Source of the DNA: Candidatus Woesebacteria bacterium | GTDB lineage: Bacteria; Patescibacteriota; Microgenomatia; UBA8517 | Length of the DNA: 64,000 bases | Direction of reading: 5' to 3' | Assembly (NCBI GenBank): GCA_016700095.1 | Contig: CP065002.1 | Location: 1,124,145-1,188,144 of the forward strand | Part shown: piece by piece, positions 6,731-24,482 of the stretch | Numbering within the stretch: position 1 is the stretch's first letter | How the letters are laid out: the number at the start of each line of letters is the position of its first letter | Notes under the pieces: generated by a model | Databases searched by the model: none | What the model saw: only the letters and a program-made list of their open reading frames with translations | Told to the model about the DNA's origin: nothing | Program-made: the position numbers and the translations under genes

Positions 6731-7294
6731 ATGGGACAAATTCCTTTCTTAACCTTGTTGGCGTTATTGTCATTTCTGGGTTATTTTTATACCAACAAAC
6801 GTCCGTATAAGTATGAATTTAAAACTAAAATTGACGATCGACTTAAACTAATTCCGGTATTTGTTATTCCATATCTATCACTGTTCCCGCTTCTTGTCGT
6901 TACGTATTTGTCTTTAGATCATATTTCTTTACTAAAGTTCTTATTGGCATTAATCGTGGTAAATGTTACGTCCTCACTCTTCTGGTTTTACATTCCCAAC
7001 GGAGTCAGACGTTACAAGGTCGACAAATACGATACCCTGTCAAAAATAATTAATTACATATATATCCACGATGGTGATACAAATGGCTTTCCGTCGGCAC
7101 ACGTTTTCTTAAGTACTATCTGCACATACTATTTATATAGTAATTACAACAATCTAGCGTACATTATTCTCGGTTTAATTATTATTCTCTCAACCGTATT
7201 TATAAAACAACACTACGTTGTCGACATACTGGGTGGATTGCTTTTTGCTACAATTGCACTGGTTACCTCCGGTTTACTATTGGCAAATTATTAG
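6731..7294 (+). CDS. PAP2-superfamily membrane phosphatase (phosphatidic acid phosphatase type 2-like).
   Basis: Motifs FPSAHV (PSGH-like) and QHYVVDILGG (SRx5Hx3D-like), about 5 TM helices. The start was moved to the ATG at 6731, preceded by TTGCAC-N15-TATAAT. The track ORF began at 6617. Confidence 0.65.
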   Translation: MGQIPFLTLLALLSFLGYFYTNKRPYKYEFKTKIDDRLKLIPVFVIPYLSLFPLLVVTYLSLDHISLLKFLLALIVVNVTSSLFWFYIPNGVRRYKVDKYDTLSKIINYIYIHDGDTNGFPSAHVFLSTICTYYLYSNYNNLAYIILGLIIILSTVFIKQHYVVDILGGLLFATIALVTSGLLLANY

Positions 7295-7381
7295 GACGAA
7301 CAAACAGTCATACTTTGGGATATTTGAAATTAATTTAAGCCTCTCTTTCATTGTCAATTGCCGGTACTGTATCATTAACGT

Positions 7382-8395
7382 ATGAAAATAAAAGTCCCAG
7401 GATATCTGACTGACAAATTCGTACCTGACTTAAACGCAGTTAATCTCTTAGAGTATTTTTTGATATCAGCTATCAGCGCGTTTCTTGTTATCCGGCTGTT
7501 TCTCGGACTTACAGGTTTTCCCATTATTGGTGGTGATGAACTCCATTTTGCACACATGCTCTGGGGCGGGATCTTTATGCTTCTTGCCATCATTGTGTAT
7601 TCGACATTTATAAATACCCACAGCAAAACAGTTGGGGCGATACTCGGAGGAATTGGATTTGGTACATTTATCGATGAATTGGGAAAATTCATAACTGCCG
7701 ACAACGATTACTTTTACAAACCGACAATTGCATTAATCTATATCATATTTATTTTTATCTTTCTTTTTATTCGTTGGATTTCCTCAATCAGTGAATACTC
7801 ATCAAAAACATATCTGGCAAATTCTATCGAGGTTCTGAGAGAATTGGTTATCTTGGATCTTGATATCAGCGAAAGAAAGCGAGCTTTAAAGTATTTAAAA
7901 AAGTGCGATTCTGGAAATTATATTGTCAATATGCTTAAAGACATTATCGAAAAAACTACAGCCGCACCCCCAAGTAAATCTTTCTATATTACAATTACGT
8001 TACTACTTTTCGGGTGGTACAAAAATACTCTCCATGCAAAGTTTATTTCACAAAGTCTAATACTATTCTTTATAATTACAACCCTCTCCAATTCATTTTT
8101 GGCAATTTATAGATTGTATTATTGGTCGGATCATTCTTTTAGTGACCTTGGGACTTTTTTCTCTTCGATAATCGTTGGTGTGTTTGTTGTTCTGGCTATC
8201 CGTTTTTATCTTAAGGGCAAACGTCTTCATATGTATTACTACCTCCAACACGCCTCACTAGTCGCCATCTTGTTTCTGCAATTCTTTCTATTTCTTCAAA
8301 ACGAAATGACAGCATTTTTTTCATTTGTTATGTTTCTCTCAATCTACCTTGTAATTAAATATGCAATCGAAGCTGAACGAAGATATAAGATTTGA
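7382..8395 (+). CDS. Polytopic integral membrane protein, function unknown.
   Basis: 337 aa with many TM helices. The overlapping antisense ORF 7375..7704 is rejected. Confidence 0.55.
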   Translation: MKIKVPGYLTDKFVPDLNAVNLLEYFLISAISAFLVIRLFLGLTGFPIIGGDELHFAHMLWGGIFMLLAIIVYSTFINTHSKTVGAILGGIGFGTFIDELGKFITADNDYFYKPTIALIYIIFIFIFLFIRWISSISEYSSKTYLANSIEVLRELVILDLDISERKRALKYLKKCDSGNYIVNMLKDIIEKTTAAPPSKSFYITITLLLFGWYKNTLHAKFISQSLILFFIITTLSNSFLAIYRLYYWSDHSFSDLGTFFSSIIVGVFVVLAIRFYLKGKRLHMYYYLQHASLVAILFLQFFLFLQNEMTAFFSFVMFLSIYLVIKYAIEAERRYKI

Positions 8396-11455: not shown

Positions 11456-11746
11456 ATGACTTATTTCGTATACATTCTCAGAACTTCATCTAATACTTTA
11501 TATATTGGTCAAACAAATGATGTAAGAAGAAGAATTTCAGAACACAAAAAGAAAGGCAAAAAGTCTGCTAAGTACTTGCGATACTTTAAGTCAGTGGAAC
11601 TTATTCATCAAGAAAAATACAATACTAAAAGTCAGGCTTTAAAACGCGAGGCTGAACTGAAAAAATGGCCAAAAGCAAAAAAAGAGGAACTGTGTAAAAA
11701 CCGCATCCATGAAGTATTGTCAAATAATGAAAAAGACTTATCCTGA
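11456..11746 (+). CDS. GIY-YIG nuclease superfamily protein (YhbQ/UPF0213-like).
   Basis: YFVYILRTSSNTLYIGQTNDVRRRISEH matches the GIY-YIG core. Confidence 0.8.
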   Translation: MTYFVYILRTSSNTLYIGQTNDVRRRISEHKKKGKKSAKYLRYFKSVELIHQEKYNTKSQALKREAELKKWPKAKKEELCKNRIHEVLSNNEKDLS

Positions 11747-11797
11747 TAATGTTGATGGTGTATTATTTAAGTATTAGGTTAGGAGGTGACAATTACG

Positions 11798-11998
11798 ATG
11801 AAAATACTTCAAAATGAAAGTAAAGTAGATAGGGGTATACGCATGGTTCTCGGTATGGCTATAGCTTTAGTTAGCTTTACCTATCTGGAGGGAACATTAC
11901 AACTTATTGCTCTGATAATTTCTTTGGTACTATTAGTAACCGGCTTTACGGGTTTTTGTCTTTTGTACAAATTACTAGGCATTAATACCAAGAAATAA
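11798..11998 (+). CDS. DUF2892 (YgaP-like) small inner-membrane protein.
   Basis: RGIRMVLGMAIALVSF...LVTGFTGFCLLYKLLGINT matches the DUF2892 signature. The ATG at 11798 lies 8 nt after AGGAGGTGA. The track start at 11786 is a GTG inside the SD. Confidence 0.7.
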   Translation: MKILQNESKVDRGIRMVLGMAIALVSFTYLEGTLQLIALIISLVLLVTGFTGFCLLYKLLGINTKK

Positions 11999-12116
11999 TC
12001 TAGATAGTATAATTTACTTCGACTTAAGATCTTTTTGGCAGTGGTATGTTTACAAAATACTCAACCCTGTTGAGACACTTACCCGGAAGCGGATTTTTAG
12101 TGAGACTTCACGAACT

Positions 12117-12137
12117 AAAGTCCGTGGTGACTTTTTT
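12117..12137 (+). terminator. Intrinsic terminator after the DUF2892 gene (AAAGTC-cgtggt-GACTTT followed by TTT).
   Basis: 6-bp stem, 6-nt loop and a T-run read directly from the sequence. Confidence 0.4.
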
Positions 12138-12306
12138 CGTCTTCAGCGGTAAGGCAAATCTCTATCGACGCGATAGAACGCGTGGTATTACCGAAAAAAG
12201 AAAATAAAAAGAAGCTTTAAAAAGTAAAAATACACAACACCCTTGGATGTAGGAAGAAAAGAATTGATGCGATTGCGTATTTGTATTGGTATTTTTATAA
12301 ACAGTC

Positions 12307-12678
12307 TTATTTTACCGGTTTGAATTTTATACCGTATTGAATAATTCCCGAAGTGTCAAAGTCTGATATTTTTCTAAATACCGCCTCGACTTTTGTACCT
12401 ATTCTCACATCTTTCCTTTTATAATCCGTTAATTGCGACAACATCAGCGGTCCTTTGGTAAGTTTAATTATAACAATCGTATATGGAACAAACTTTTCAA
12501 AACCTGTCGGAGCAACATATACCTCACTTAGCGAAATTATTTTTCCGTAGGGTTGTAGTAAATAATCCTTTGTTTTTCCTATAGCTCTACACTTTGGACA
12601 AACGGTTTTTGCCGGATAGGTAATTAATTTACACTTCAAACAACATCCCCCAAGAAGTCTATATTTCGACTTCTGCAT
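12307..12678 (-). CDS. DUF35 zinc-ribbon/OB-fold protein, the scaffold of the archaeal-type thiolase/HMG-CoA synthase complex.
   Basis: CLKCKL...CPKC zinc ribbon followed by an OB-fold region, located immediately downstream of the thiolase. The start was moved to the ATG at 12678 (GGAG 4 nt upstream). The track start would overlap the thiolase. Confidence 0.8.
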   Translation of the reverse strand: MQKSKYRLLGGCCLKCKLITYPAKTVCPKCRAIGKTKDYLLQPYGKIISLSEVYVAPTGFEKFVPYTIVIIKLTKGPLMLSQLTDYKRKDVRIGTKVEAVFRKISDFDTSGIIQYGIKFKPVK

Positions 12679-12713
12679 TCTCCAATTTTTTGGTGGTAAA
12701 TTGTGCATGTTAT

Positions 12714-13865
12714 TTAAATTCCGAATATACTTACTACACAAGTTGAACCGGAACCTCCTACATTGTGTGTCAATCCGTATCTGACATTAGGTATTTGTCG
12801 ATCTCCCGCCGTTCCCTCTAGTTGGTGTACAATTTCTATGACTTGTTTAATACCAGTTGCGCCAACTGGATGACCACACCCTTTTAATCCGCCTGAAGTA
12901 TTAATTGGCAACTTTCCACTAAGTGTCGTTTCGGCATTTCTAATTCCCTTGAACGCCATACCTTTTTCATAAAAACCTAAATCTTCCATCGCAAACACTT
13001 CGGCTATAGTAAAGCAATCATGTACTTCGGCAACATTGATATCTTTCGGTTTTATATTTGCTTGTTGGTATGCATTTTTGGCAGCTAATCGAGCCGATTT
13101 TAAAGATGTTAGATCCTGTCGATTACATAAAGACAAACTGTCTGTTGCGGACGAAGATGCCAGAACCGAAACCTTCACTTTATTTTTAACAACATTTGTT
13201 TCACTAGTTAGTATTACAGCAGCAGCCCCGTCCGAAATTGGCGAACAATCAAAAAGCTTCAAAGGCGAAGCAACAGGTGCACTATTTAACACATCATCAA
13301 CTGTAATGCTGTTGTGAAAATGCGCGTTTGGATTAAGGCGTGCATTGTGATGATTTTTTACGGCAATAGTTGCCAAATCTTTCTGGGTTAAGCCATACTT
13401 ATCCATATATACAGTTGCCATTAAAGCATAAAGACCCGCAAAGTTTGCGCCATAAAAACTTTCCACTTCATCGTCGGAAGCTTGCATCAATGCCGCTGTG
13501 ATATCCGGAGTACTTAAATCCGTCATTTTTTCGACACCCACAACCAAAACCGTTTTGTTTTGTCCGCTTTTTATACTTTCAGCTGCCAATTGGATAGCCG
13601 TCCCACCGGATGCACATGCCGCCTCAATGTGTACTGCTTGTACATTAATTCCGAGTTCTCCAGTAACCAATGGACCAAGATGAGATTGTCCTGAGGTTGT
13701 TGGAGCAATCATATTGGCTACATAAACTCCGTCAATATCATCGGGCGATAAACCTGCGTCTTTTAATGCAAGAAGTGACGCTTCCAATGCCAATTGTCGA
13801 AGCGACTTCGACCACAGCTCTCCAAATTTTGTAATACCTGTACCTGCTACCAATATCTTGTTCAT
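12714..13865 (-). CDS. Acetyl-CoA C-acetyltransferase (archaeal/SCP-x-type thiolase).
   Basis: N-terminus MNKILVAGTGITKFGE and C-terminal catalytic-region motifs. It overlaps the HMGS stop by 4 nt. Confidence 0.85.
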   Translation of the reverse strand: MNKILVAGTGITKFGELWSKSLRQLALEASLLALKDAGLSPDDIDGVYVANMIAPTTSGQSHLGPLVTGELGINVQAVHIEAACASGGTAIQLAAESIKSGQNKTVLVVGVEKMTDLSTPDITAALMQASDDEVESFYGANFAGLYALMATVYMDKYGLTQKDLATIAVKNHHNARLNPNAHFHNSITVDDVLNSAPVASPLKLFDCSPISDGAAAVILTSETNVVKNKVKVSVLASSSATDSLSLCNRQDLTSLKSARLAAKNAYQQANIKPKDINVAEVHDCFTIAEVFAMEDLGFYEKGMAFKGIRNAETTLSGKLPINTSGGLKGCGHPVGATGIKQVIEIVHQLEGTAGDRQIPNVRYGLTHNVGGSGSTCVVSIFGI

Positions 13866-14905
13866 AGTACGATTTTGTTTTTTAATCTTAAATATGATGT
13901 ATAGGAAATGTATTTCTTGTTGACAAGAAGTGTCGAGGTTTTGGATGCTTTTCTTTGAATTTTAGTCAATTCACGCGTTGTCTCGAAAACAAACGCATCC
14001 GATCCGGATCCTGATCCATATGATGTTAACAATATATTTTGCCCTGGTTTAGCTATGTCAAAAACGCTACACAAACCAATCATTGACGAAGCCGAGTAGG
14101 TATTTCCTAAATTACCAACCACCAAACCGGCTTTCAATTGTTTTTCGGTAAAACCCATTTTAAGGGCAACGTTACCGGGAAACTTACCATTGGGCATATG
14201 AAATACGACATGATCATAATCACTTGGTTGAGTTTTTGTCTTTTCAAGAATGTTTTTTGTAGCCATCATAATATGCTTAAAATATGCAGGTTCACCGGTA
14301 AACCGCCCGGCATGTTTTGGACAAGTCTCACCTTCACGTCTCCAGAAGTCGGGTGCGTCCGAGGAGTAAGATAAGGTATCAATTATTTTTACTGCAATAT
14401 TTTTACGGCCGATGATTATCGCCGCTGATCCGGCTGCAGCGGTATATTCAAGTGCATCGCCGGCAGTACTTTGCGCACAATCAGTCCCGATGGCTAAACC
14501 ATTTTTAATCATTAGTGACGATACCAACCCGATCACAATTTGCATATTTGCCGTTCCTGCTTTGCAGGCAAATTGGGTATCAATTGCCATATAGTCATTT
14601 GTCATTCCAATTGCTTCGGCAACAATCGTTGATGATGGCTTGACCGCATATGGATGTGATTCAGATCCAATATATATTGCACCCACTTCATTTGATTGAA
14701 TTGTAGATCTTTCAAGTGCTCTTAATGCTGCTTCCACCGAAAGTGTAATCGTATCCTCATCGTAATTCGGTACCGATTTCTCATGTACACCCAAAGCTCT
14801 TCCGGGATTCATTGAACTGTTCCAAGCCCTGGCTATATTTTTGGTTTTAATACGCAAGTGAGGAATACTAACTCCGTATCCAACTATGCCAACATTTTTC
14901 ATCAC
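13862..14905 (-). CDS. Hydroxymethylglutaryl-CoA synthase (archaeal type).
   Basis: MMKNVGIVGYGVSIPHLRIK N-terminus typical of archaeal-type HMGS. It has a 4-nt overlap with each neighbouring gene. Confidence 0.9.
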   Translation of the reverse strand: MMKNVGIVGYGVSIPHLRIKTKNIARAWNSSMNPGRALGVHEKSVPNYDEDTITLSVEAALRALERSTIQSNEVGAIYIGSESHPYAVKPSSTIVAEAIGMTNDYMAIDTQFACKAGTANMQIVIGLVSSLMIKNGLAIGTDCAQSTAGDALEYTAAAGSAAIIIGRKNIAVKIIDTLSYSSDAPDFWRREGETCPKHAGRFTGEPAYFKHIMMATKNILEKTKTQPSDYDHVVFHMPNGKFPGNVALKMGFTEKQLKAGLVVGNLGNTYSASSMIGLCSVFDIAKPGQNILLTSYGSGSGSDAFVFETTRELTKIQRKASKTSTLLVNKKYISYTSYLRLKNKIVL

Positions 14906-16098
14906 ACTTGTCCTCCTCTTGCGTATTTCATATGTGCTTTAGCCAAATCATTAGATGACAACGCCGCAAGCAAAGATAATTCACCACAAAGAACTGCAGA
15001 TGCAACTATTTCAGCGAATTTCTTGGCATTAGTTCCTGAAGGTTTACCAGATCCTGCTATACCCATTATTGACAGAGCTTGACTCTGCGATGAAAGATTA
15101 GTTCCTCCTCCAATCGTTCCCAATATCAGACTTGGTAAATCAACACTTATATAAAGGTTGCTGTTATCGGCTTCTATGGAAGTCGTTCCCAAAGATCCTT
15201 CGACGACATGTGCCAAGTCTTGCCCCGTTGCCGCAAAAATAGCTGCTACTACATTTACATGATGTGCATTTACCCCCATCGCACCGGCTACCTGAGATCC
15301 GATCAATAATTTTCGAACATAAACTTCGTATATTTTTTGCGATGTAGTTTTCAGCGTTTTTACGAGAATATTTTTCGGTATAACTACTTCTGCATGGACA
15401 GTATGACCCCTGCCATGTAATTTATTTATCCATGCTGGTTTTTTGTCGGTGCACACGTTTCCACTCAACGAAATGCAATTTACTTGTGTTTTTGGTAAAA
15501 GAAATTTTCTTATAACATGATCACAAGCAAAGGTTGCCATATTCATCCCCATGGCATCATTGGTATCAAATCTAAATCTTAAATATACATTCCTTCCGGA
15601 TATATAAGGATCGATGGCGATAAGTTTGATGAATGGTGAAGTCTCGGTAACCAACTTTTCAATCCGTGTAATATTTTTTTGTACAAATTTAATAAAAGCT
15701 TGTGCTTCGTTATAACTATTAACACAAAAAACTGGCGCTCGCGTCATTTCACTTTTAACAATAGCAACCGACACTCCTCCCGCTGAAGTTGCCGCTTTAC
15801 ACCCCCTGTTTACACTTGCAACCAATGCACCTTCGGTTGTCGCAAGCGGTATATAATAATTTCCTTGCGCATATTTACCTCTAACGGTTAAGGGTCCGGC
15901 AACACCCAGGGGTATATCGACTTTTCCAATTAGATTCTCGCAGTTTTTAGTCGATACATCGTCAACATTAAAACTTGGATTTTCGATACTGTCTAATTTT
16001 ATATGAAGTTTTTTTTCTAAAACAGACCTTCTTTGGCCCATCGGATCACTTGAATTTATTATATTTTCCGTTGGGGTCTTGTTAACAATTTTTTGCAT
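14902..16098 (-). CDS. HMG-CoA reductase, class I (short archaeal-type).
   Basis: DAMGMN and GTIGGGT motifs, about 400 aa. It is the first gene of the operon, with a TATAAT box about 20 nt upstream and no SD. Confidence 0.9.
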   Translation of the reverse strand: MQKIVNKTPTENIINSSDPMGQRRSVLEKKLHIKLDSIENPSFNVDDVSTKNCENLIGKVDIPLGVAGPLTVRGKYAQGNYYIPLATTEGALVASVNRGCKAATSAGGVSVAIVKSEMTRAPVFCVNSYNEAQAFIKFVQKNITRIEKLVTETSPFIKLIAIDPYISGRNVYLRFRFDTNDAMGMNMATFACDHVIRKFLLPKTQVNCISLSGNVCTDKKPAWINKLHGRGHTVHAEVVIPKNILVKTLKTTSQKIYEVYVRKLLIGSQVAGAMGVNAHHVNVVAAIFAATGQDLAHVVEGSLGTTSIEADNSNLYISVDLPSLILGTIGGGTNLSSQSQALSIMGIAGSGKPSGTNAKKFAEIVASAVLCGELSLLAALSSNDLAKAHMKYARGGQV

Positions 16099-16415: not shown

Positions 16416-17546
16416 TTATCCAATTACTTTCTCCCAAGGAAATATATTTCTACCAAAATGCCCATATGAAGCCGTTTTTAGATAGATCGGATTTCTTAAG
16501 TTAAGACCACTTATGATTCCCTCAACTGATGTGTCTAATAACTTATGCATATACATTTTAATTTCTTTTTGTGAAGCTTTTTCTGTTCCGAAAGTTTCCA
16601 CGTCCTGCATGACAGGTTTTCTCGCACCGATGAAATACGCCAGTCTAACTTCTGCCCTTTGAGCAAGACCTTTAGCCACAATATTTTTAGCAAGAAATCT
16701 GGCTGCATATGCTCCGGATCGATCAACTTTTGTTGGGTCTTTACCGCTAAAAGCGCCACCCCCAAGACGGGCATAACTTCCATAACTATCCACTGCGATT
16801 TTTCGACCCGTAACCCCCGTGTCCGATGCCGGTCCTCCGATATGCCACACACCTGTTCCGTTAACAATCAAATCTTTTGGAGATATTTCAAATCCATATT
16901 TCAATAACACAGGGGAAACGACTTTTTTGTAAATGTCATCTTTTACTTTATTAAGTGCAACTTTAGGAGAATGTGGTACAGCAACCACGACATTTGTTAT
17001 TCGATATGGTTTACCATTTTTATATTCAACAGTCACTTGGCTTTTTCCGTCAGGACGAAGATACTTCAGTATATTTTTCTCTCTTACTTTATCTAATAAT
17101 TCACAAAGATTGTGTGCAATCATAATTGGAAGCGGCATAAATACTTTTGTTTCATTACATGCATATCCAAACATCATCCCCTGATCCCCGGCACCTTTTT
17201 TATTTACGCCCTGGGCAATTTCGCTTGATTGTTCATGAATATTTATAGAAATATCACTAGCAGGCGAAAAGCCCAATTCCGGCTCAATATAACCTAATCT
17301 TTTAATTTGTTTTTTAATTATTTTTTCGTAGTCAACCTTATAGTCGGAGGTAATTTCACCCGCAACAAACACTTTATTAGTCGTCACCATTGTTTCAACT
17401 GCTACTCTTCCAAACTCATCTTTTTTGTATACCTCATCAAGAATAGCGTCACTTATCTGATCGCATATTTTATCGGGGTGACCAGCACAAACAGACTCGG
17501 AGGTAAATAAATTTTTGGAGATGATTGTTTTTTGTCGACTGACCAT
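16416..17546 (-). CDS. metK: S-adenosylmethionine synthetase.
   Basis: FTSESVCAGHPDKICDQISD N-terminal signature. The start was reset to the ATG at 17544..17546 (RBS AAGGAAAG), because the upstream track extension overlaps the riboswitch. Confidence 0.95.
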   Translation of the reverse strand: MVSRQKTIISKNLFTSESVCAGHPDKICDQISDAILDEVYKKDEFGRVAVETMVTTNKVFVAGEITSDYKVDYEKIIKKQIKRLGYIEPELGFSPASDISINIHEQSSEIAQGVNKKGAGDQGMMFGYACNETKVFMPLPIMIAHNLCELLDKVREKNILKYLRPDGKSQVTVEYKNGKPYRITNVVVAVPHSPKVALNKVKDDIYKKVVSPVLLKYGFEISPKDLIVNGTGVWHIGGPASDTGVTGRKIAVDSYGSYARLGGGAFSGKDPTKVDRSGAYAARFLAKNIVAKGLAQRAEVRLAYFIGARKPVMQDVETFGTEKASQKEIKMYMHKLLDTSVEGIISGLNLRNPIYLKTASYGHFGRNIFPWEKVIG

Positions 17547-17554
17547 ATCTTTCC

Positions 17555-17645
17555 TTTTGGCCGGAATTAGCACCGTGTTTTAAATCGGTTGCTGGGTAGC
17601 TTAACAAGCCGGATCTTTAGCTACCTCTCTTGATACCTAAATAAA
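17555..17645 (-). ncRNA. SAM-I (S-box) riboswitch in the metK 5' leader.
   Basis: Reverse-strand sequence TATCAAGAGAGGTAGC...GCTACCCAGCAACC...ACGGTGCTAATTCCGG contains the S-box hallmarks (AUCAAGAGnGG, GCAACC, GGUGCUAAUUCC) directly upstream of metK. Confidence 0.8.
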
Positions 17646-17771
17646 AATAGCAAATTCCAATCCATTTGTAAATAGCATGTATGTCTAGATACGATAAATA
17701 CTCCTCACTACAAGTTAGAAATATTCACTTCATAACTTTCCCTGCTCCAGTACGGATTACAATTAATATTT

Positions 17772-18305
17772 CTAAATTAAGTCAGCCATTTTGTTTATGG
17801 CTGCGGAAAAAAGATACGACAATATCCCAATTAATCCAAGAAATAAAATAACCCACCAAATCGTTTTTGCACCAGCAGCCGCCTGTGGTAAAAACAAACT
17901 TGTCTCAGTAAAAATAACCAAAGCAACAATACACATAAGTCTGTGTTTATAGGTCCATTGGGGTAAATAATACCTGAGTTTATATTTTTTTCGTAGTGTG
18001 GCGTAAACATACGACATAAACCTGCTAATTATCATGATCGCGAATGACATTTTTGCAAAAACCGACAGAATATCCTTCTCGTCATAGACAGTGTCGCGTA
18101 AGATGTTTTGAAGGAAAAACTTGACTATTTGAACCGGAAAACCGTGTGACAATTCCAACACTTCTTCATCGGTTGTGTTAATAATTATTATCACAACAAA
18201 CGCTGCAAATATTACAATCGCAGGGGTTAGTATCATATAACCCAGATAATAGATAAAATATTTTACAAACAATTTTAACATCTCATAAGAGTTTACATTT
18301 TTCAT
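17772..18305 (-). CDS. Integral membrane protein, function unknown.
   Basis: Multiple TM helices. The start was moved to the ATG at 18305 (TATAAT 6 nt upstream, leaderless-like) to avoid the antisense overlap with 18372..19583 created by the track start. Confidence 0.45.
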   Translation of the reverse strand: MKNVNSYEMLKLFVKYFIYYLGYMILTPAIVIFAAFVVIIIINTTDEEVLELSHGFPVQIVKFFLQNILRDTVYDEKDILSVFAKMSFAIMIISRFMSYVYATLRKKYKLRYYLPQWTYKHRLMCIVALVIFTETSLFLPQAAAGAKTIWWVILFLGLIGILSYLFSAAINKMADLI

Positions 18306-18371
18306 ATCTGTATTATAAACATATTTAGACTTCATGTAACCCAGGCAAGCTGGTATACTTATTTTTAAAAT

Positions 18372-19583
18372 ATGGCAACCAATATTACATGTCCCTTTTG
18401 CAACAAACATTTTGAACCAAGTGATGCATACAAACACGAACTTGAAGAAAAATTAATTAGTGATATCAAAGCGAAATATAACGAGGAGCTTATTAAACTA
18501 AAGAAAGAAAAACAGGACATTCTTGTCAAAAGCGAAGAAAAATTGGAAGAAGTAAAAAATGAAATTACACTAAAGGCAAGAAAAGATGCGATCAATAAGG
18601 TTAGGTTGGAATACGATGCAAAAATTGCCTCCACAAAAGAGGAAAGTAAAGAGCAGGAATATAAAAATAAAGAGCTCCAGGAAGAAATTAAAAAATTATT
18701 TAAAGAACTTCGGGAAACAAAAGATACTAAAGATCGTTTAGAAATAGAATTCCAAAAGAAACTATTTGAAGAGCAAACAAAAATCAGAAACGTTGCAAGA
18801 CGTGAAGTCGAAAATGAATTTAATCTAGAGATTGCCAAGAAAGACAAAAAAATGCAAGATCTTCAAAAACAACTTCAAGAAGCACAACGCAAAGCGCAAG
18901 TCGGTTCCCAACAGCTACAAGGTGAATTGCAAGAATTAGCATTTGAGAAATCGCTCACAAGTGAATTTCCGTTCGATAAAATCCGCGAAGTCCCTAAGGG
19001 TGTCAATGGCGCAGATATAATCCAGGAAGTGTTTCATAGTTCAGGAACATTTTCAGGGACAATTGTATGGGAAATAAAAAATACCAAAAACTGGTCGAAC
19101 AAATGGATCGCAAAACTCAAACAAGACAAAAGAATGTTGAAAGCAGATCTTGCTGTCCTTGTCACTACGGCTCTTCCCGAAGGATCTTTGTCGTTTGAAT
19201 TAATTGATGGAATTCTTGTTACACAACCAGAAATCGCATTAGGTTTAAGCCATTTACTGCGGCAACAAATTATTCAAGTACACGCTGCAAACACTGCAAA
19301 CGAAGGAAAATCGGAGAAAGCTGAAATTGTATATAATTACTTAATAAGTAATGATTTCAAACAAAGAATAGAGGTATGGGTCGAATACTTCAAAAACCGT
19401 CGTGACGAGATCGACAAAGAAAGAGCTTATTATACTAAAAAATGGGAAAAGGAAGATAAAGACATTGTTCGTGTAATACAAAATACCGCCGGGATATATG
19501 GTGATTTGCAGGGGTTAATTGGCAATGCATTGCCGAAGGTTAGTTATTTGGAGCTGTCTGAGGGAGATAAGAAATTATCTTAA
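18372..19583 (+). CDS. DUF2130 family protein: N-terminal CPxC zinc finger, long coiled coil, C-terminal restriction-endonuclease-like (D...ExK) domain.
   Basis: CPFCNKHF, a K/E-rich coiled coil, then GADIIQEV...GTIVWEIKNTKNW...LVTQPEIALGLSHLLRQQIIQV matching DUF2130 C-terminal conservation. Confidence 0.8.
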   Translation: MATNITCPFCNKHFEPSDAYKHELEEKLISDIKAKYNEELIKLKKEKQDILVKSEEKLEEVKNEITLKARKDAINKVRLEYDAKIASTKEESKEQEYKNKELQEEIKKLFKELRETKDTKDRLEIEFQKKLFEEQTKIRNVARREVENEFNLEIAKKDKKMQDLQKQLQEAQRKAQVGSQQLQGELQELAFEKSLTSEFPFDKIREVPKGVNGADIIQEVFHSSGTFSGTIVWEIKNTKNWSNKWIAKLKQDKRMLKADLAVLVTTALPEGSLSFELIDGILVTQPEIALGLSHLLRQQIIQVHAANTANEGKSEKAEIVYNYLISNDFKQRIEVWVEYFKNRRDEIDKERAYYTKKWEKEDKDIVRVIQNTAGIYGDLQGLIGNALPKVSYLELSEGDKKLS

Positions 19584-19649
19584 CTAAAATCATCCGAGGT
19601 TAAACTCTACTGTCAAGTTCACGTAATATATATTTACTTTATGGTTCGC

Positions 19650-20510
19650 CTAAGCGTTATTGAAGGTATTTTGAAAGACTAAATCATACAAATACTTATT
19701 AAAATCGTCATAGTTGACAGATTTACTTATAGAAATAATATGTCCTCGTGGATTTTCATGTAATACGCCATACTTATCTACTATTACTTTTTTATCCTCA
19801 AAGGATACCCATTTACCAAATAAAACACTTAGAGCTAATACATCGTGTAAATAAGATACTGGATATTTGTATTTAAACCATTTTTTATAATTATCTAAAA
19901 TCAATCTATCTCCTTTATCTTTCGAATCAGTTAAATATTTTATTAACCAATGATTATCATCAACCGCCAAGGACGGATTAATGGTTATATCCGATACAAC
20001 TATTTTTAGCCGTTTACACTTTCGTAAAACCCTTTTAACTGCAGATACGTCATTTTTTGCGTTTGCTTCCGAAGCACCAAAATTTTTCTTCCAGGATGAA
20101 ACCATAGCTAGTACGAGTATCCTTTCTACGTCTCTAGGGTATTTTTTTATTAATTCGGATACATTTGTCAAACATCCCGAGCTCACAATAATCGTTAAAT
20201 CCTTATTAATAATCAGTTTATGAAGCTCACTTAACATAAAATCCGAATCTACATTCTTACAATCATTACATATTTTAAAGACAAAATTATTTCCACACCC
20301 TCGTTCAAAACCTGCAAATGTTGAAATATTCTGATTTGTTAATTGTAAATACTTATCTAATAACAATTTTCTATTTTGACCTATTTCGTTTGAGGTAATT
20401 ATCACATCCGGAATTACTTTTGTAAGTCGAAGAAAGTGTAGCATTGCCATATCATCGGGATCATAACCAATATCAGTACTAATCACCAACCCGATATTTT
20501 TCTTCCTCAT
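19650..20510 (-). CDS. Inosine-uridine nucleoside hydrolase (IUNH)-fold protein.
   Basis: N-terminal STDIGYDPDDMAMLHFL (the DxDxxxDD Ca-binding motif) and SSGCLTNVSELIKKYP (the GPLTN motif). It overlaps the upstream 724-aa gene by 32 nt. Confidence 0.7.
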   Translation of the reverse strand: MRKKNIGLVISTDIGYDPDDMAMLHFLRLTKVIPDVIITSNEIGQNRKLLLDKYLQLTNQNISTFAGFERGCGNNFVFKICNDCKNVDSDFMLSELHKLIINKDLTIIVSSGCLTNVSELIKKYPRDVERILVLAMVSSWKKNFGASEANAKNDVSAVKRVLRKCKRLKIVVSDITINPSLAVDDNHWLIKYLTDSKDKGDRLILDNYKKWFKYKYPVSYLHDVLALSVLFGKWVSFEDKKVIVDKYGVLHENPRGHIISISKSVNYDDFNKYLYDLVFQNTFNNA

Positions 20511-22653
20511 AAAATTTCTTCCATATCTTCAAGTTTTTTTCTTCTTCAATATACTCTCCAGGATACAACAACCTTACCGGTACAGCTTTTGCTTTGTACG
20601 CAGCCACCCAATCGACCTCATTATTTCCCACAAACGCAAACTGCTGTGGAATAATACCCAATTTATTAACCAACCTCAATACCGCTTGTTCACTGGGTTT
20701 TTTAACATTTTCCTCGCTTGATACCAAAACGTTATTAGAGTTAATTATATTACCAATATTACACTTATCAATGATTCTCATCACGAATTCTTTTGAATAG
20801 TGCGTATTAGTAAATATTGCAATTTGTATTCGTTTCTTCTTGAGATTTTTCAACATTTTTATTAATCCTTTCCTGGGTTTTGTAAAATTTATTTCCATTT
20901 GCATTTCTTTATCAAGTAGCATTCTGGCTAATTTTGGAGCAACATTTTTTTCAACACCAGCCTTCCTAACAACTTCTTCAATAATCATTATATAATCTAT
21001 CTCTTGGTACGCAATTTCTTTTGCCTTTTTTTCTTTTCCCCACAATTCCTTTAAACCGCTACTAAACAAATTATATTTATTTCCAAGTTGAAAATATTCA
21101 AATACTTTTTTATGTGTGTTGTGAATACTATTAGACCGTAAATTCTTATTCAAACCTGGTCTTTCCACTAAAGTCTCATAGAGATCAAACCCGACACCTT
21201 CAATTATTTTATGATCATGTAAGTTTACCAAGTATTCTTGAAGTTCATTGAAATTTATAAATGTCCTTTCGCATTGCATCAAGCTTAAGTTGATTATCTT
21301 CTCTGGTATATACGGACCGTTTAGCTTATACTTGGAGTCTTTTCCCAAAAACGAATCGGACACCGGACTAACTGCAAGTGCTTCTAAAGTCAAAAACTTT
21401 TCATACCTAATATTATTATCTTTCGCCCATTTAATATTTGCATAGACTGCAACAAAATCCAGATCAACGTTTTTCGTTAGATGTTTTTTCAACCATTTTC
21501 TGAACTTATCATATGTCTCAAATTTTCCAACCGAATCGTCCATCAACATAATTTTGTTAGCATTATTTATTTTATTAACAAGTTGTTCATTGGGCTCGAT
21601 GTCAATTGCATTATTCTCACTCTTTAAATCGGCAATTTCGGACCTTCTAAGAGGTCTCATTTTTACAATTCTTGTCAATACGTTTATTATTTCGATGTTA
21701 TCACAATGTACATGAACTCGAGATTGTCCCAAATACTTTGCAAGGTACTCTCTGTTTTGAAACACATAACGTAATGCCATGGCGACATCGATACCACCAT
21801 ACAAAGGTGCTAAAACCAAATCTACATCTTCCAATCTTCTTGTTTTAAAAAAGACATGTAATGCAAATAGTAAGCTTATGGGCGATGCCGCTTCTCTGTG
21901 ACTTCGTATTAAATCAAGTTCTGGATAATTTTCGACAGTCTCTACAGTTGTTAGTAGATCTTTAATCAATGATTCCAATCGGTATTGAATATTTTTTTGA
22001 TCAAGATTGGTTTTTGTAATATCCAAGAGGAGAAACAAATCAAAATACTCTTTGTATAGCATATTGAGTAGTTTATTATAGTCATCATTTTGCACTGAAT
22101 TAGTCAAGGCACTTTTGCATGCAATTAAGTAATATGCCACCACAACGTCATTGATTATGTAAAATAGTGATGCCAATTTGGCTAGCCACTCGCTTACATT
22201 AGAGGGTTTAAAATCATCGAGAAATACAAGAATATCACCATCTTCAGTGAGGTTATTCCTCAACATCGAAAGCGCGTGAATACCATTTGGACCCCATTCA
22301 AATTTTCCATCAAAATTGTAAAATTTCGGTCCTCTCAGTGCAACAAAACGTTCAGCGCCTTCTCTTGTGTGTAAGTCACTACTCTCTGACGAATTGTTCA
22401 GCCATATTTCGCGGTCTACCACAGGCATAATTCTTTCACTTAAGAAATATTTCCTTAGCCAATCTGGCAACTCCGCGAATGACTTTTTATCGATAATGGG
22501 ACTACCGTCTATTAAAAACAAATCACCTGTTATCGAATTAATTTTCTCTGGTACACTAAAGGTCTGTTCCACCCGCTTATCGATTATTGCCTGCCAATAA
22601 ATCAATTTTTTAGACATAATCTTCTCCACATCACAGTATTTGTATTTTTTCAT
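20479..22653 (-). CDS. 724-aa multidomain protein: unknown N-terminal region, degenerate PRTase-like middle domain, C-terminal HAD-like hydrolase domain.
   Basis: Middle region LVLAPLYGGIDVAMAL...KIMLMDDSVGKFET resembles the PRTase PPi-loop and hhhhDD PRPP motif. The C-terminus has GVGFDLYETLVERP (a DxYxT variant of HAD motif I) and FVGNNEVDWVAAYKAKAV (motif IV-like). Confidence 0.75.
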   Translation of the reverse strand: MKKYKYCDVEKIMSKKLIYWQAIIDKRVEQTFSVPEKINSITGDLFLIDGSPIIDKKSFAELPDWLRKYFLSERIMPVVDREIWLNNSSESSDLHTREGAERFVALRGPKFYNFDGKFEWGPNGIHALSMLRNNLTEDGDILVFLDDFKPSNVSEWLAKLASLFYIINDVVVAYYLIACKSALTNSVQNDDYNKLLNMLYKEYFDLFLLLDITKTNLDQKNIQYRLESLIKDLLTTVETVENYPELDLIRSHREAASPISLLFALHVFFKTRRLEDVDLVLAPLYGGIDVAMALRYVFQNREYLAKYLGQSRVHVHCDNIEIINVLTRIVKMRPLRRSEIADLKSENNAIDIEPNEQLVNKINNANKIMLMDDSVGKFETYDKFRKWLKKHLTKNVDLDFVAVYANIKWAKDNNIRYEKFLTLEALAVSPVSDSFLGKDSKYKLNGPYIPEKIINLSLMQCERTFINFNELQEYLVNLHDHKIIEGVGFDLYETLVERPGLNKNLRSNSIHNTHKKVFEYFQLGNKYNLFSSGLKELWGKEKKAKEIAYQEIDYIMIIEEVVRKAGVEKNVAPKLARMLLDKEMQMEINFTKPRKGLIKMLKNLKKKRIQIAIFTNTHYSKEFVMRIIDKCNIGNIINSNNVLVSSEENVKKPSEQAVLRLVNKLGIIPQQFAFVGNNEVDWVAAYKAKAVPVRLLYPGEYIEEEKNLKIWKKFYEEEKYRVGD

Positions 22654-23297
22654 ACTATATTAATAATTTTTGTCGCTTAAACGCGTAACAGCTTCGCATA
22701 CTTCTCGCACTTTTAAAAGAAGTTGGGGTTACATTTTATACTAAGGAAGTTTATATGCAAACAACTAATATATAAAAGAGTCATGTTGTTGAAATTACAT
22801 ATTCAATCAAACTATTAAAAATTTCTTTTCACAATAATATAAATAATATATATTACTTTATTGCCATACCTCGTCTTAATTTATGTGATATACTGAATAT
22901 ATAAATACTGATCCGAAACTGAAAAATCTCGTAGACAGGCTTGTCAAAAGAGGGGGTAGGGTTGACGCTTTTTATCTTCGTAACCAAAACAAAAACAAGC
23001 ATGCTATTGTTTACTTAAACGGGTGGATTGCAGGCAAAAACATCCGTGAGGCACTGCAAAAAGCATTGTTAAAATAGTCCGTATTTTTAGACTAATTTGA
23101 TAATTAGTAAATTCAGGTGTATAATAAAGATGTATTTCTAGATTGAAAGAATTACTTCTTAAAAAATTATAATATTTTAAGTTTTGTTAGATAAAAGATA
23201 CCCCAAGTTTTTAAACTATTATATTTGTATCTTTACTTCCTAAACCAATATCTTATTTTAAGGTAATAATTATCTTTCAATCTTAAATACTATTTAT

Positions 23298-24482
23298 ATG
23301 CATAACTATCGACAAAGAAATAGAGGAAGAAATTCCGGTAATTTTCGTGGTAATCAAAACGGACCACGCCGAACGGTTAAGTCATTTAATCCTTCCGGCA
23401 TGGTAAATTCGCCGCAAATACCCAGTGAAAAACAAAGTGAGTACGTTGCTAAACATTCGTTTTCTGATTTTGATATATCCAAGGAATTGAAACGCAATGT
23501 ATATTCAAAAGGTTACAAAATACCAACCCCCATCCAAGACCAAGCAATCGAACCAATTCTTTTGGGTCGTGACTTTGTTGGTATTGCCAACACCGGAACG
23601 GGGAAAACAGCTGCTTTCCTTATTCCTTTAATAAACAAAGTCCTTGTCGACCGTCATCAGCAAATATTAATTCTAACCCCGACACGTGAACTTGCAATTC
23701 AGATAAGAAATGAATTTTTGGATTTCTCGGAATATCTTGGACTGCATTCATGTTTGGCAATCGGTGGAGAAAATATCAAAAGACAAATTCGCGATTTAGA
23801 CTATAATCCGAATTTCGTTATTGCAACACCTGGAAGAATTATAGATTTACTGAATTCAAGAAAAATTAAACCGAGAAACTTTTCTACAGTTGTTCTTGAT
23901 GAGGCAGACAGAATGGTGGATATAGGCTTTATTAAAGATATTAAATATATTATTTCTTTGTTACCGTATAAACGTCAATCATTATTTTTCTCAGCAACCA
24001 TGACAGACGATGTACAAAAAGTATTAAGGGACTTTGTACGTAATCCAATTACCGTATCGGTAAAAAAAGCCGAAACAGCAGAGAATGTATTGCAACAAGT
24101 AATAAGCATTCAAAACAACAATAAGATAGACATATTACACAAATTACTTGTCAGCAAAGACTATGAAAAAGTTTTGGTATTTGGCCGGACGAAACATGGA
24201 GTCCAGAGACTTTCAGATGATTTGGTTAAAAGAGGGTTTAAATCAGGAGCAATACATGGAAACAAAAAACAAAATCAACGCAACAAAGTACTAGACTTGT
24301 TCAAACGCAATGAAATAAAAGTTCTTATAGCTACAGACGTAGCGTCCCGCGGACTTGATATTCCAAACGTCAGTCACGTAATCAATTACGATCTCCCTGA
24401 ATCAAAAGAAGCATATATTCACAGGATTGGAAGAACCGGAAGAGCAGATCAAAAAGGTGTTGCAGTTACTTTTGTCAATTAA
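23298..24482 (+). CDS. DEAD-box ATP-dependent RNA helicase.
   Basis: Q-motif region, AxxGTGKT, PTRELA, DEAD, SAT and HRIGRTGR motifs. It has a 640-bp upstream untranslated region. Confidence 0.92.
   Translation: MHNYRQRNRGRNSGNFRGNQNGPRRTVKSFNPSGMVNSPQIPSEKQSEYVAKHSFSDFDISKELKRNVYSKGYKIPTPIQDQAIEPILLGRDFVGIANTGTGKTAAFLIPLINKVLVDRHQQILILTPTRELAIQIRNEFLDFSEYLGLHSCLAIGGENIKRQIRDLDYNPNFVIATPGRIIDLLNSRKIKPRNFSTVVLDEADRMVDIGFIKDIKYIISLLPYKRQSLFFSATMTDDVQKVLRDFVRNPITVSVKKAETAENVLQQVISIQNNNKIDILHKLLVSKDYEKVLVFGRTKHGVQRLSDDLVKRGFKSGAIHGNKKQNQRNKVLDLFKRNEIKVLIATDVASRGLDIPNVSHVINYDLPESKEAYIHRIGRTGRADQKGVAVTFVN

Follow-up and report, generated by a model that had tools for sequence, protein, structure and literature searches.

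A rare phosphoribosyltransferase-like/HAD fusion protein encoded with an overlapping nucleoside hydrolase gene in a Candidatus Woesebacteria genome: a candidate salvage module

The type-I phosphoribosyltransferases (PRTs; APRT, HGPRT, UPRT, OPRT, and the C-domain of PurF; PF00156), the His-containing hydrolases of the inosine-uridine nucleoside hydrolase (IUNH) family such as E. coli RihA and C. fasciculata IU-NH, and the C1-capped enzymes of haloacid dehalogenase (HAD) subfamily IA (NANP/HDHD4, the CTE7 family TIGR02253, and phosphoglycolate phosphatase), together with the L-2-haloacid dehalogenases, are the closest known relatives of the proteins considered here. Combinations of such activities are also on record. 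In the gPRT-PRP pairs (T. composti 7SHG, K. pneumoniae O4/O7, and CriT-CrpP of H. influenzae Bcs3), a PRT-like domain flanked by helical bundles is accompanied by a HAD phosphatase, which takes the 5-phosphate off the ribose that has been transferred (PMC10299916, PMC11231755), and the angustmycin route employs a base-releasing enzyme that cleaves an N-glycoside (AgmA), a PRT (AgmE), and a HAD phosphatase (AgmB) (PMC8599513). We describe here two overlapping genes that resemble each of these systems in part, found in a 64,000-nucleotide stretch (hereafter, the window) of the 1.27-Mb genome of a Candidatus Woesebacteria bacterium (contig CP065002.1, positions 1,124,145 to 1,188,144). The larger gene encodes a PRT-like core that lies between an orphan N-terminal domain (N-domain) and a HAD domain, and the smaller gene encodes an IUNH-family protein:

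20479..22653, minus strand: gene for the 724-amino-acid N-domain/PRT-like/HAD protein (QQS38848.1, annotated only as "HAD family hydrolase")
19650..20510, minus strand: gene for the 286-amino-acid IUNH-family N-ribohydrolase (QQS38847.1, annotated as "nucleoside hydrolase")
20479..20510, minus strand: 32-nt overlap of the PRT-HAD and IUNH genes
21919..22653, minus strand: N-domain, mostly alpha-helical, residues 1-245 (AlphaFold2 model and family alignment)
21214..21918, minus strand: divergent type-I PRT-like core, residues 246-480 (family profile, Pfam matches of relatives, and Foldseek)
20479..21213, minus strand: C-terminal HAD domain with a helical C1-type cap, residues 481-724 (Pfam and Foldseek)

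We put the probability at about one half that this gene pair is the core of a rare, conserved nucleoside or nucleobase salvage module of small-genome uncultured bacteria. Each of the catalytic folds is already known; what is new is the orphan N-domain, the N-domain-PRT-HAD architecture, the variant catalytic positions, and a tight association of four genes, and no description of the family was found among the papers retrieved by literature searches. The decisive evidence for function is the gene neighbourhood. An IUNH gene lies directly 3′ of the gene encoding the N-domain and PRT core (N-PRT) in 11 of the 12 informative loci, usually overlapping it (the window, L001, L003, L006, L007, L009, L011, L012, L013, L014, and L015; L007, L008, and L010 are one genome and were counted as one locus, and L002 ends too early to judge). 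The overlaps span 4 to 32 nt, with 32 nt in the window, 20 nt in L001, and 4, 4, 8, 8, 4, 8, and 4 nt elsewhere; the genes of L013 and L014 do not overlap and are separated by short gaps of 25 and 11 nt, respectively. Relatives with as little as 17-21% identity show the linkage too (that of L013 is 21%), and the HAD-less relatives in L012, L014, and L015 are still paired with an IUNH gene.

The wider neighbourhood is also one of nucleotide metabolism. A deoxynucleoside kinase gene (dNK, PF01712) is no more than three genes away in six loci (L003, L006, L007, L013, L014, and L015), overlapping the start of the PRT-HAD gene in L007 and the end of the IUNH gene in L013. A stand-alone HAD with the canonical DxD in its motif I (FDVDDLL) is encoded between the IUNH and dNK genes in both L014 and L015; the two proteins are 33% identical to each other. 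L015 also contains a second N-PRT paralogue, as expected if the two differ in base specificity. Further neighbours are a dCTP deaminase and two fusions (MtrA-thymidylate synthase-pterin-binding and nucleoside 2-deoxyribosyltransferase [NDT]-thymidylate kinase) in L007, GMP synthase, PNP/UDP phosphorylase, a deaminase, ribonucleotide reductase, and a PfkB kinase in L013, CTP synthase and Ham1 in L014, and Ham1 in L012.

L014, 7853..8818, minus strand: stand-alone HAD gene
L015, 3877..4737, minus strand: stand-alone HAD gene
L015, 5425..6681: second N-domain-PRT paralogue
L007, 3967..5565: fusion of MtrA-like, thymidylate synthase, and PterinBD-DUF4346 parts
L007, 8093..9193: fusion of nucleoside 2-deoxyribosyltransferase-like and thymidylate kinase parts

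Salvage is favored because the conserved set of N-PRT, IUNH, HAD, and dNK is the salvage inventory of organisms that lack de novo nucleotide synthesis. A hydrolase followed by a PRT is the standard purine salvage route in trypanosomatids, and plant RNA salvage runs from phosphatase to nucleoside hydrolase to PRT (PMC12369478). In the module proposed here, the IUNH-type enzyme would split scavenged ribonucleosides into ribose and free base, and the PRT core would join the base to phosphoribosyl pyrophosphate (PRPP), giving a usable 5′-nucleotide, with the N-domain serving as hood and base-binding part. The HAD domain would act as a nucleotidase, either feeding the route from nucleotides that are not directly usable or draining a surplus, and the accompanying dNK would deal with deoxynucleosides in parallel. 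The identities of the domains, the conserved catalytic residues, and the linkage of the genes are direct results of the analysis, whereas the substrates, the direction, and the order of these steps are those that the gene set suggests, and both the PRT core and the HAD domain are presumed to be catalytically active.

Before the individual domains are considered, the genes themselves require comment. The open reading frame (ORF) listing placed both ORFs at the coordinates given in a preliminary description of this DNA and reproduced the 724-residue length of the larger product and the 32-nt overlap stated there, and all of the motifs quoted there were recovered by translating the exact sub-ranges. 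On sequence grounds both ORFs are real genes rather than chance frames, because homologues from independent samples, at 17-38% identity, keep the same architecture. The overlap is an indication that translation of the PRT-HAD and IUNH genes is coupled, as the preliminary description had it; a ribosome binding site-like GGAAGAA lies within the large gene, just 5′ of the IUNH ATG. The large protein may be 712 rather than 724 residues long, since a good Shine-Dalgarno sequence (GGAGAAG, with a 6-nt spacer) precedes an alternative start at M13 (ATG at 22617), whereas M1 has none. An AlphaFold2 model made with a three-sequence alignment was too poor for use (predicted local distance difference test [pLDDT] 56); that made with an 18-sequence alignment reached a pLDDT of 86 and a predicted template modelling score (pTM) of 0.87, with the three domains packed as one confident unit.

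The small protein retains the IUNH catalytic residues, listed below. It passes the IU_nuc_hydro threshold (PF01156) narrowly, at 38.6 bits against 34.2, and a profile of the partner family matches E. coli RihA over its full length (E 3.4e-15). The Asp cluster and the TN, AEFN, and LHDP segments all align to RihA, the sole difference being a two-residue insertion in the Asp cluster. Ten residues (D13, D17, D19, D20, N116, E148, N150, D174, H222, and D223) are invariant in all six IUNH partners, and the protein shares the Asp cluster, E-x-N, and H-D with the His-containing hydrolases. It is unlike RihA and IU-NH in having TDxGxDPDD instead of the Ca2+-binding DxDxxxDD, in being short (about 285 residues) and only marginally above the Pfam threshold, and in always being paired with an N-PRT gene. 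It appears to be a working His-containing N-ribohydrolase and not a degenerate one; the earlier suggestion that its catalytic motifs are non-canonical was not borne out, because the catalytic residues are all conserved.

20451..20477, minus strand: IUNH Asp cluster TDIGYDPDD, residues 12-20 (translation)
20061..20069, minus strand: IUNH E148-x-N150 (ribose-binding)
19842..19847, minus strand: IUNH H222-D223 (catalytic His-Asp pair)

The assignment of the middle of the large protein as a PRT is visible only at the level of the family and not from the window protein alone, which falls below every Pfam PRT threshold and has no match to Pribosyltran (PF00156) at E ≤ 1. One relative, P0008, does pass the Pribosyltran threshold of 26.3 bits, at 26.5 bits; P0013 reaches 20.7 bits, and P0013, P0017, and P0009 give weaker matches to Pribosyltran, UPRTase, and PRTase-CE in Pfam. 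A family profile of residues 240-480 has 47 PDB matches at E ≤ 10, 45 of which are type-I PRTs or PRPP synthetases; all of these (PurF and APRT included) are aligned at the PRPP loop, the best with E 0.0045. The order of strands and helices in residues 257-480 of the AlphaFold2 model fits a PRT core, and Foldseek against viral models, with the whole protein as query, returned adenine and guanine PRTases at probability 0.99 with E 0.076. The key elements are as follows:

21892..21915, minus strand: family-invariant DxxRxxRE segment, residues 247-254, opening the PRT core (alignment)
21787..21810, minus strand: APLYGGID, residues 282-289, the loop after the first core strand, in the place of the PRT pyrophosphate-binding loop
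21514..21552, minus strand: PRPP-binding loop IMLMDDSVGKFET, residues 368-380 (translation and alignment)

In all 18 aligned sequences, R250, E254, G286, D289, and D372-D373 are invariant, and the T or S that ends the PRPP loop is always present. The full canonical loop (four hydrophobic residues, D-[DE], two or three further residues, and [TS]-G-x-[TS]), with its (T/S)-G, occurs in 10 of the 18; the window protein and several relatives have the variants KF, RF, TL, TF, and TM. The window protein shares with the type-I PRTs the hydrophobic strand and DD before the PRPP loop, the Gly loop after the first strand, and, in the model, the order of the core, and differs from them in K-F for T-G, the 245-residue orphan helical domain, the invariant DxxRxxRE, and the HAD fusion. 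A PRT-like core with a degenerate PRPP loop had been read correctly in the preliminary description. We conclude that residues 246-480 probably form a divergent type-I PRT core in which the ribose-binding acidic pair is intact and the 5-phosphate loop is modified. A regular-expression search found no canonical PRPP loop among all ORFs of the 64-kb window.

The degenerate loop in the window protein and several relatives, and the failure of the window protein to match any Pfam PRT family, could also be expected of a core that does not catalyze at all, but senses PRPP or nucleotides and governs the HAD domain as a nucleotidase, the operon then being a nucleotide-catabolic, ribose-releasing pair. 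B. subtilis PurR is a precedent for a non-catalytic PRT-like sensor, and HAD plus IUNH alone would make a coherent route from nucleotide to ribose, a combination of nucleotidase and nucleoside hydrolase that is known from yeast. However, the residues expected to be catalytic (the DD, G286, D289, R250, and E254) are invariant over 17-38% identity, and the catalytic positions that are relaxed are found in the HAD domain and not in the PRT core. In addition, because the HAD-less members keep the pairing of N-PRT with IUNH, the PRT part must have a role independent of the fused HAD. We regard a pure sensor as improbable.

The N-domain has no match in Pfam or NCBIfam, and a 15-sequence profile of it found no credible match among PDB sequences (best E 0.5). 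The region therefore remains without a recognizable family, as originally described, although its length is about 245 residues and not the roughly 300 that had been proposed. D49-G50, R107-G108, and W156 are kept across the family. Neither this domain nor the PRT region matches a well-characterized enzyme family, whereas the gene context is a housekeeping one.

The HAD domain is readily recognized by Pfam over residues 485-690 (HAD_2, 51.3 bits, threshold 23.8; Hydrolase, 44.9 bits, threshold 26.4). Nucleophile D490, T494, T615, K651/K652, and D681 are present, and the domain shares with the subfamily IA enzymes and the L-2-haloacid dehalogenases the fold, the cap, the nucleophile Asp, motif II Thr, motif III Lys, and the last Asp of motif IV. 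Its Foldseek matches are C1-capped subfamily IA enzymes, including NANP, PH0459 derivatives, phosphoglycolate phosphatase, and several L-2-haloacid dehalogenases, as well as the HAD parts of Bcs3 (8A0M/8A0C) and T. composti 7SHG.

21169..21189, minus strand: HAD motif I FDLYETL, residues 489-495 (translation)
within 20803..20814, minus strand: HAD motif II T615-N616 (translation)
within 20692..20703, minus strand: HAD motif III K651/K652 (translation)
20611..20628, minus strand: HAD motif IV GNNEVD (translation)

Motif I (DLYET) does conform to the haloacid dehalogenase-style DxYxT by which it was first described. Together with GNNEVD in motif IV, it raises the question of whether the domain has switched from phosphatase chemistry to one in which the Asp nucleophile attacks carbon, as in the L-2-haloacid dehalogenases. 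Such enzymes are among the best structural matches (3VAY, target-normalized TM-score 0.67), and the NCBIfam model HAD_type_II (TIGR01428) matches weakly across the whole domain (E 5e-4). That match, however, scores only 20 bits against a cutoff of 125.4, and the domain is thus outside the L-2-haloacid dehalogenase family TIGR01428. Moreover, the phosphatase DxD persists in P0008 and P0009 as well as in the separately encoded HADs of L014 and L015, motif IV of the distant clade still contains GD, and a nucleotide context offers no halogenated substrate. A switch of this kind is very unlikely.

Several observations nevertheless weigh against salvage as proposed above. Unlike the subfamily IA phosphatases, the window HAD has the dehalogenase-like Tyr (Y492) at D+2, the position of the general acid/base, the role of which is described in PMC10541634, and Asn (N677) stands where motif IV would have its first acidic residue. 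Among family members, the seven closest have Tyr at D+2 and the distant clade has Phe; only P0008 and P0009 retain the Asp of the phosphatase motif I, DxDx(T/V), DxD being kept in just two of 15 fused HADs. Given the Tyr or Phe at D+2, the few DxD motifs, and the Asn in motif IV, the HAD domain may be a slow or atypical phosphatase. The PRPP loop of the window protein retains the hydrophobic strand, DD, and the final T but has K-F where T-G is usual. The protein sequence does not reveal which base would be used. The divergent member P0013 (L004/L005) has no IUNH neighbour, the sole exception to the pairing, and its role may be different. The 64-kb window contains no tblastn match to dNK, thymidylate synthase, dCTP deaminase, NDT-thymidylate kinase, or the other neighbour proteins. 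Finally, fusion of a PRT to a HAD usually means consecutive steps, i.e., phosphoribosyl transfer and then 5′-dephosphorylation, which together with the hydrolase would make a futile cycle.

A different arrangement of the same parts is a base-transplanting machine, in which the hydrolase strips a base, the N-domain-PRT part couples it or another heterocycle to the activated pentose, and the HAD domain, with Tyr at D+2, yields the free nucleoside. The product might be a non-canonical nucleoside that is then activated by the linked dNK-type kinase. As a variant, the PRTs could run in reverse on surplus nucleotides to give PRPP, allowing base exchange at the nucleotide level in cells without de novo synthesis. 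We judge the base-transplanting arrangement to be doubtful, on a par with the sensor.

The gPRT-PRP pairs suggest yet another function, that of a riboside or nucleoside synthase: the PRT core would take ribose-5-phosphate from PRPP and attach it to a base or other nucleophile selected by the N-domain, the HAD domain would remove the 5′-phosphate to leave a free riboside, and the IUNH enzyme would merely supply the base. The mechanisms of CriT/CrpP and gPRT/PRP (PMC10299916, PMC11231755) are of this type, and AgmA, AgmE, and AgmB of the angustmycin route (PMC8599513) offer a precedent that includes base release. As in gPRT-PRP, the PRT-like and HAD parts are in one polypeptide in the window protein, a fusion kept in about 15 members and modelled as one confident unit; the HAD parts superpose, and Foldseek matches 7SHG (E 7.5e-5) and Bcs3 8A0M/8A0C. 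Those matches, however, fit only the HAD part (247 columns; target-normalized TM-score 0.17-0.30), and the PRT parts have no detectable sequence similarity, because 7SHG and 8A0M are both absent from the 47 PDB sequence matches of the PRT profile. The domain order is the reverse of that in Bcs3, and the vicinal DD, invariant here, is split in CriT. The context differs as well, being nucleotide metabolism here and glycan assembly there: among about 12 loci there are no glycan or natural-product genes, and in no locus is there a glycosyltransferase or capsule/O-antigen export gene beside the gene. Tyr or Phe at D+2 should also weaken hydrolysis of a sugar 5-phosphate monoester, and members without HAD exist. 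The likeness to the angustmycin route is one of activities; AgmA is a LOG-family phosphoribohydrolase and not an IUNH enzyme, and the angustmycin enzymes are separate proteins of an actinobacterial natural-product cluster with sugar-modifying enzymes. A riboside synthase is, overall, rather unlikely.

The preliminary description had offered two broad functions, nucleotide salvage or modification and a nucleotide-depleting, defence-type effector, and the neighbourhoods bear on both. The first is supported by the IUNH gene in 11 of the 12 loci and by the dNK, HAD, and nucleotide genes nearby. The second, a module acting as a toxin or against phages by using up nucleotides or PRPP, has some parallels, as retrons carry PRT effectors and the distant P0013 lies among unannotated genes near H-NS and HTH genes; HAD phosphatases and PRT-like proteins are also known from defence systems (PMC12715507). 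Neither protein, however, matches PADLOC (PADLOC-DB v2, E ≤ 1), PHROGs gives merely a generic HAD match, and the gene pair does not stand out from the window in composition. The surroundings are not those of a defence island; in the window the pair is flanked by housekeeping genes with no relation to it (those for metK, a DUF2130 protein, a DEAD-box helicase, and malic enzyme), and elsewhere core nucleotide-metabolism and translation genes are found. A defence role is, accordingly, the least credible of all those considered, and salvage by hydrolase, PRT, and HAD is the reading that we prefer.

The N-PRT family is very rare. In a word-indexed search of 5.8 billion proteins, the large protein had just two relatives, at 38% and 30% identity, and the small protein had one; an exhaustive HMMER search with a profile of residues 1-480 found 18 proteins among 1.84 billion cluster representatives. 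A later profile search of the 5.8-billion-sequence set added two members, both HAD-less. Pattern scans of 185,579 species-representative genomes recovered a single genome, that of L007, and a pattern scan of metagenome contigs found no family member.

Some other features of these loci may be recorded. P0013 (L004/L005) is encoded in a 3-Mb, 55% GC genome with many unannotated genes, near Tle1-like as well as H-NS-like and HTH genes. The 380-residue protein that follows the IUNH gene in L007 (13212..14354) has faint similarity to UPRTase (E 0.0096). In L013, the locus of the distant P0015, a further HAD-like gene, whose motif I reads DLDDT, is just upstream (7032..7889, minus strand), and an 821-residue multi-ATP-grasp protein is encoded after the dNK (11551..14016, plus strand). 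A 91-residue fragment after the IUNH gene in L011 resembled by eye the start of OMP decarboxylase; Pfam did not confirm this, and the fragment was not used.

Upstream of the gene pair in the window is a spacer that had been described as a 640-bp regulatory region. It is 644 bp long, divergent, and AT-rich, and has no Rfam match (E-value scan of 17000..24000), no blastn or tblastx match to the other loci, and no excess of promoter-like sites, 24 being found in 19500..23400 against 20.4 expected from shuffles; a terminator scan was likewise no different from shuffles. The regulatory designation thus found no support. Leaders at other loci range from overlapping genes up to 790 bp. Within the spacer is a frame of 62 codons that lacks an ATG, GTG, or TTG start and has no Pfam match; with a GC content of 0.40-0.44 against 0.12-0.26 in its surroundings, it may be a gene remnant.

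22654..23297: spacer between the operon and the DEAD-box helicase gene
22889..23074, plus strand: start-less 62-codon frame, ending in KLKNLVDRLVKRGGRVDAFYLRNQNKNKHAIVYLNGWIAGKNIREALQKALLK before the stop codon

On the other side of the pair, the DUF2130 protein (206.9 bits; 18372..19583, plus strand), which has a CxxC zinc-ribbon-like N-terminal start and a long coiled coil, is encoded convergently with the IUNH gene and is not kept beside the module in other loci. Directly upstream of metK is a SAM riboswitch (RF00162; 17542..17639, minus strand) that scores 39 bits (E 3e-6), below the gathering score of 44.4 bits. The listed GTG start of metK (ORF 16416..17573) overlaps this aptamer, and the true start is therefore probably further downstream. 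Genes for a thiolase, an HMG-CoA synthase-like protein, and HMG-CoA reductase, in a row with overlapping ends (12714..16098, minus strand), constitute the upper mevalonate pathway in a genome of the Candidate Phyla Radiation (CPR).

CPR bacteria are generally believed to be unable to make nucleotides de novo and to depend on scavenged parts of nucleic acids, and little has been defined of the way in which they restore balanced nucleotide pools; the locus described here points to an unannotated enzyme family. Because the family is very rare, its importance is local and not general, and we see it as a lead on nucleotide scavenging in CPR-type bacteria rather than as a new principle. N-PRT, nucleoside hydrolase, HAD phosphatase, and dNK form a cloneable four-enzyme set with which base salvage may be probed, and new modes of substrate recognition or new chemistry could come to light from the orphan domain and from a HAD that has Tyr where the general acid would be.

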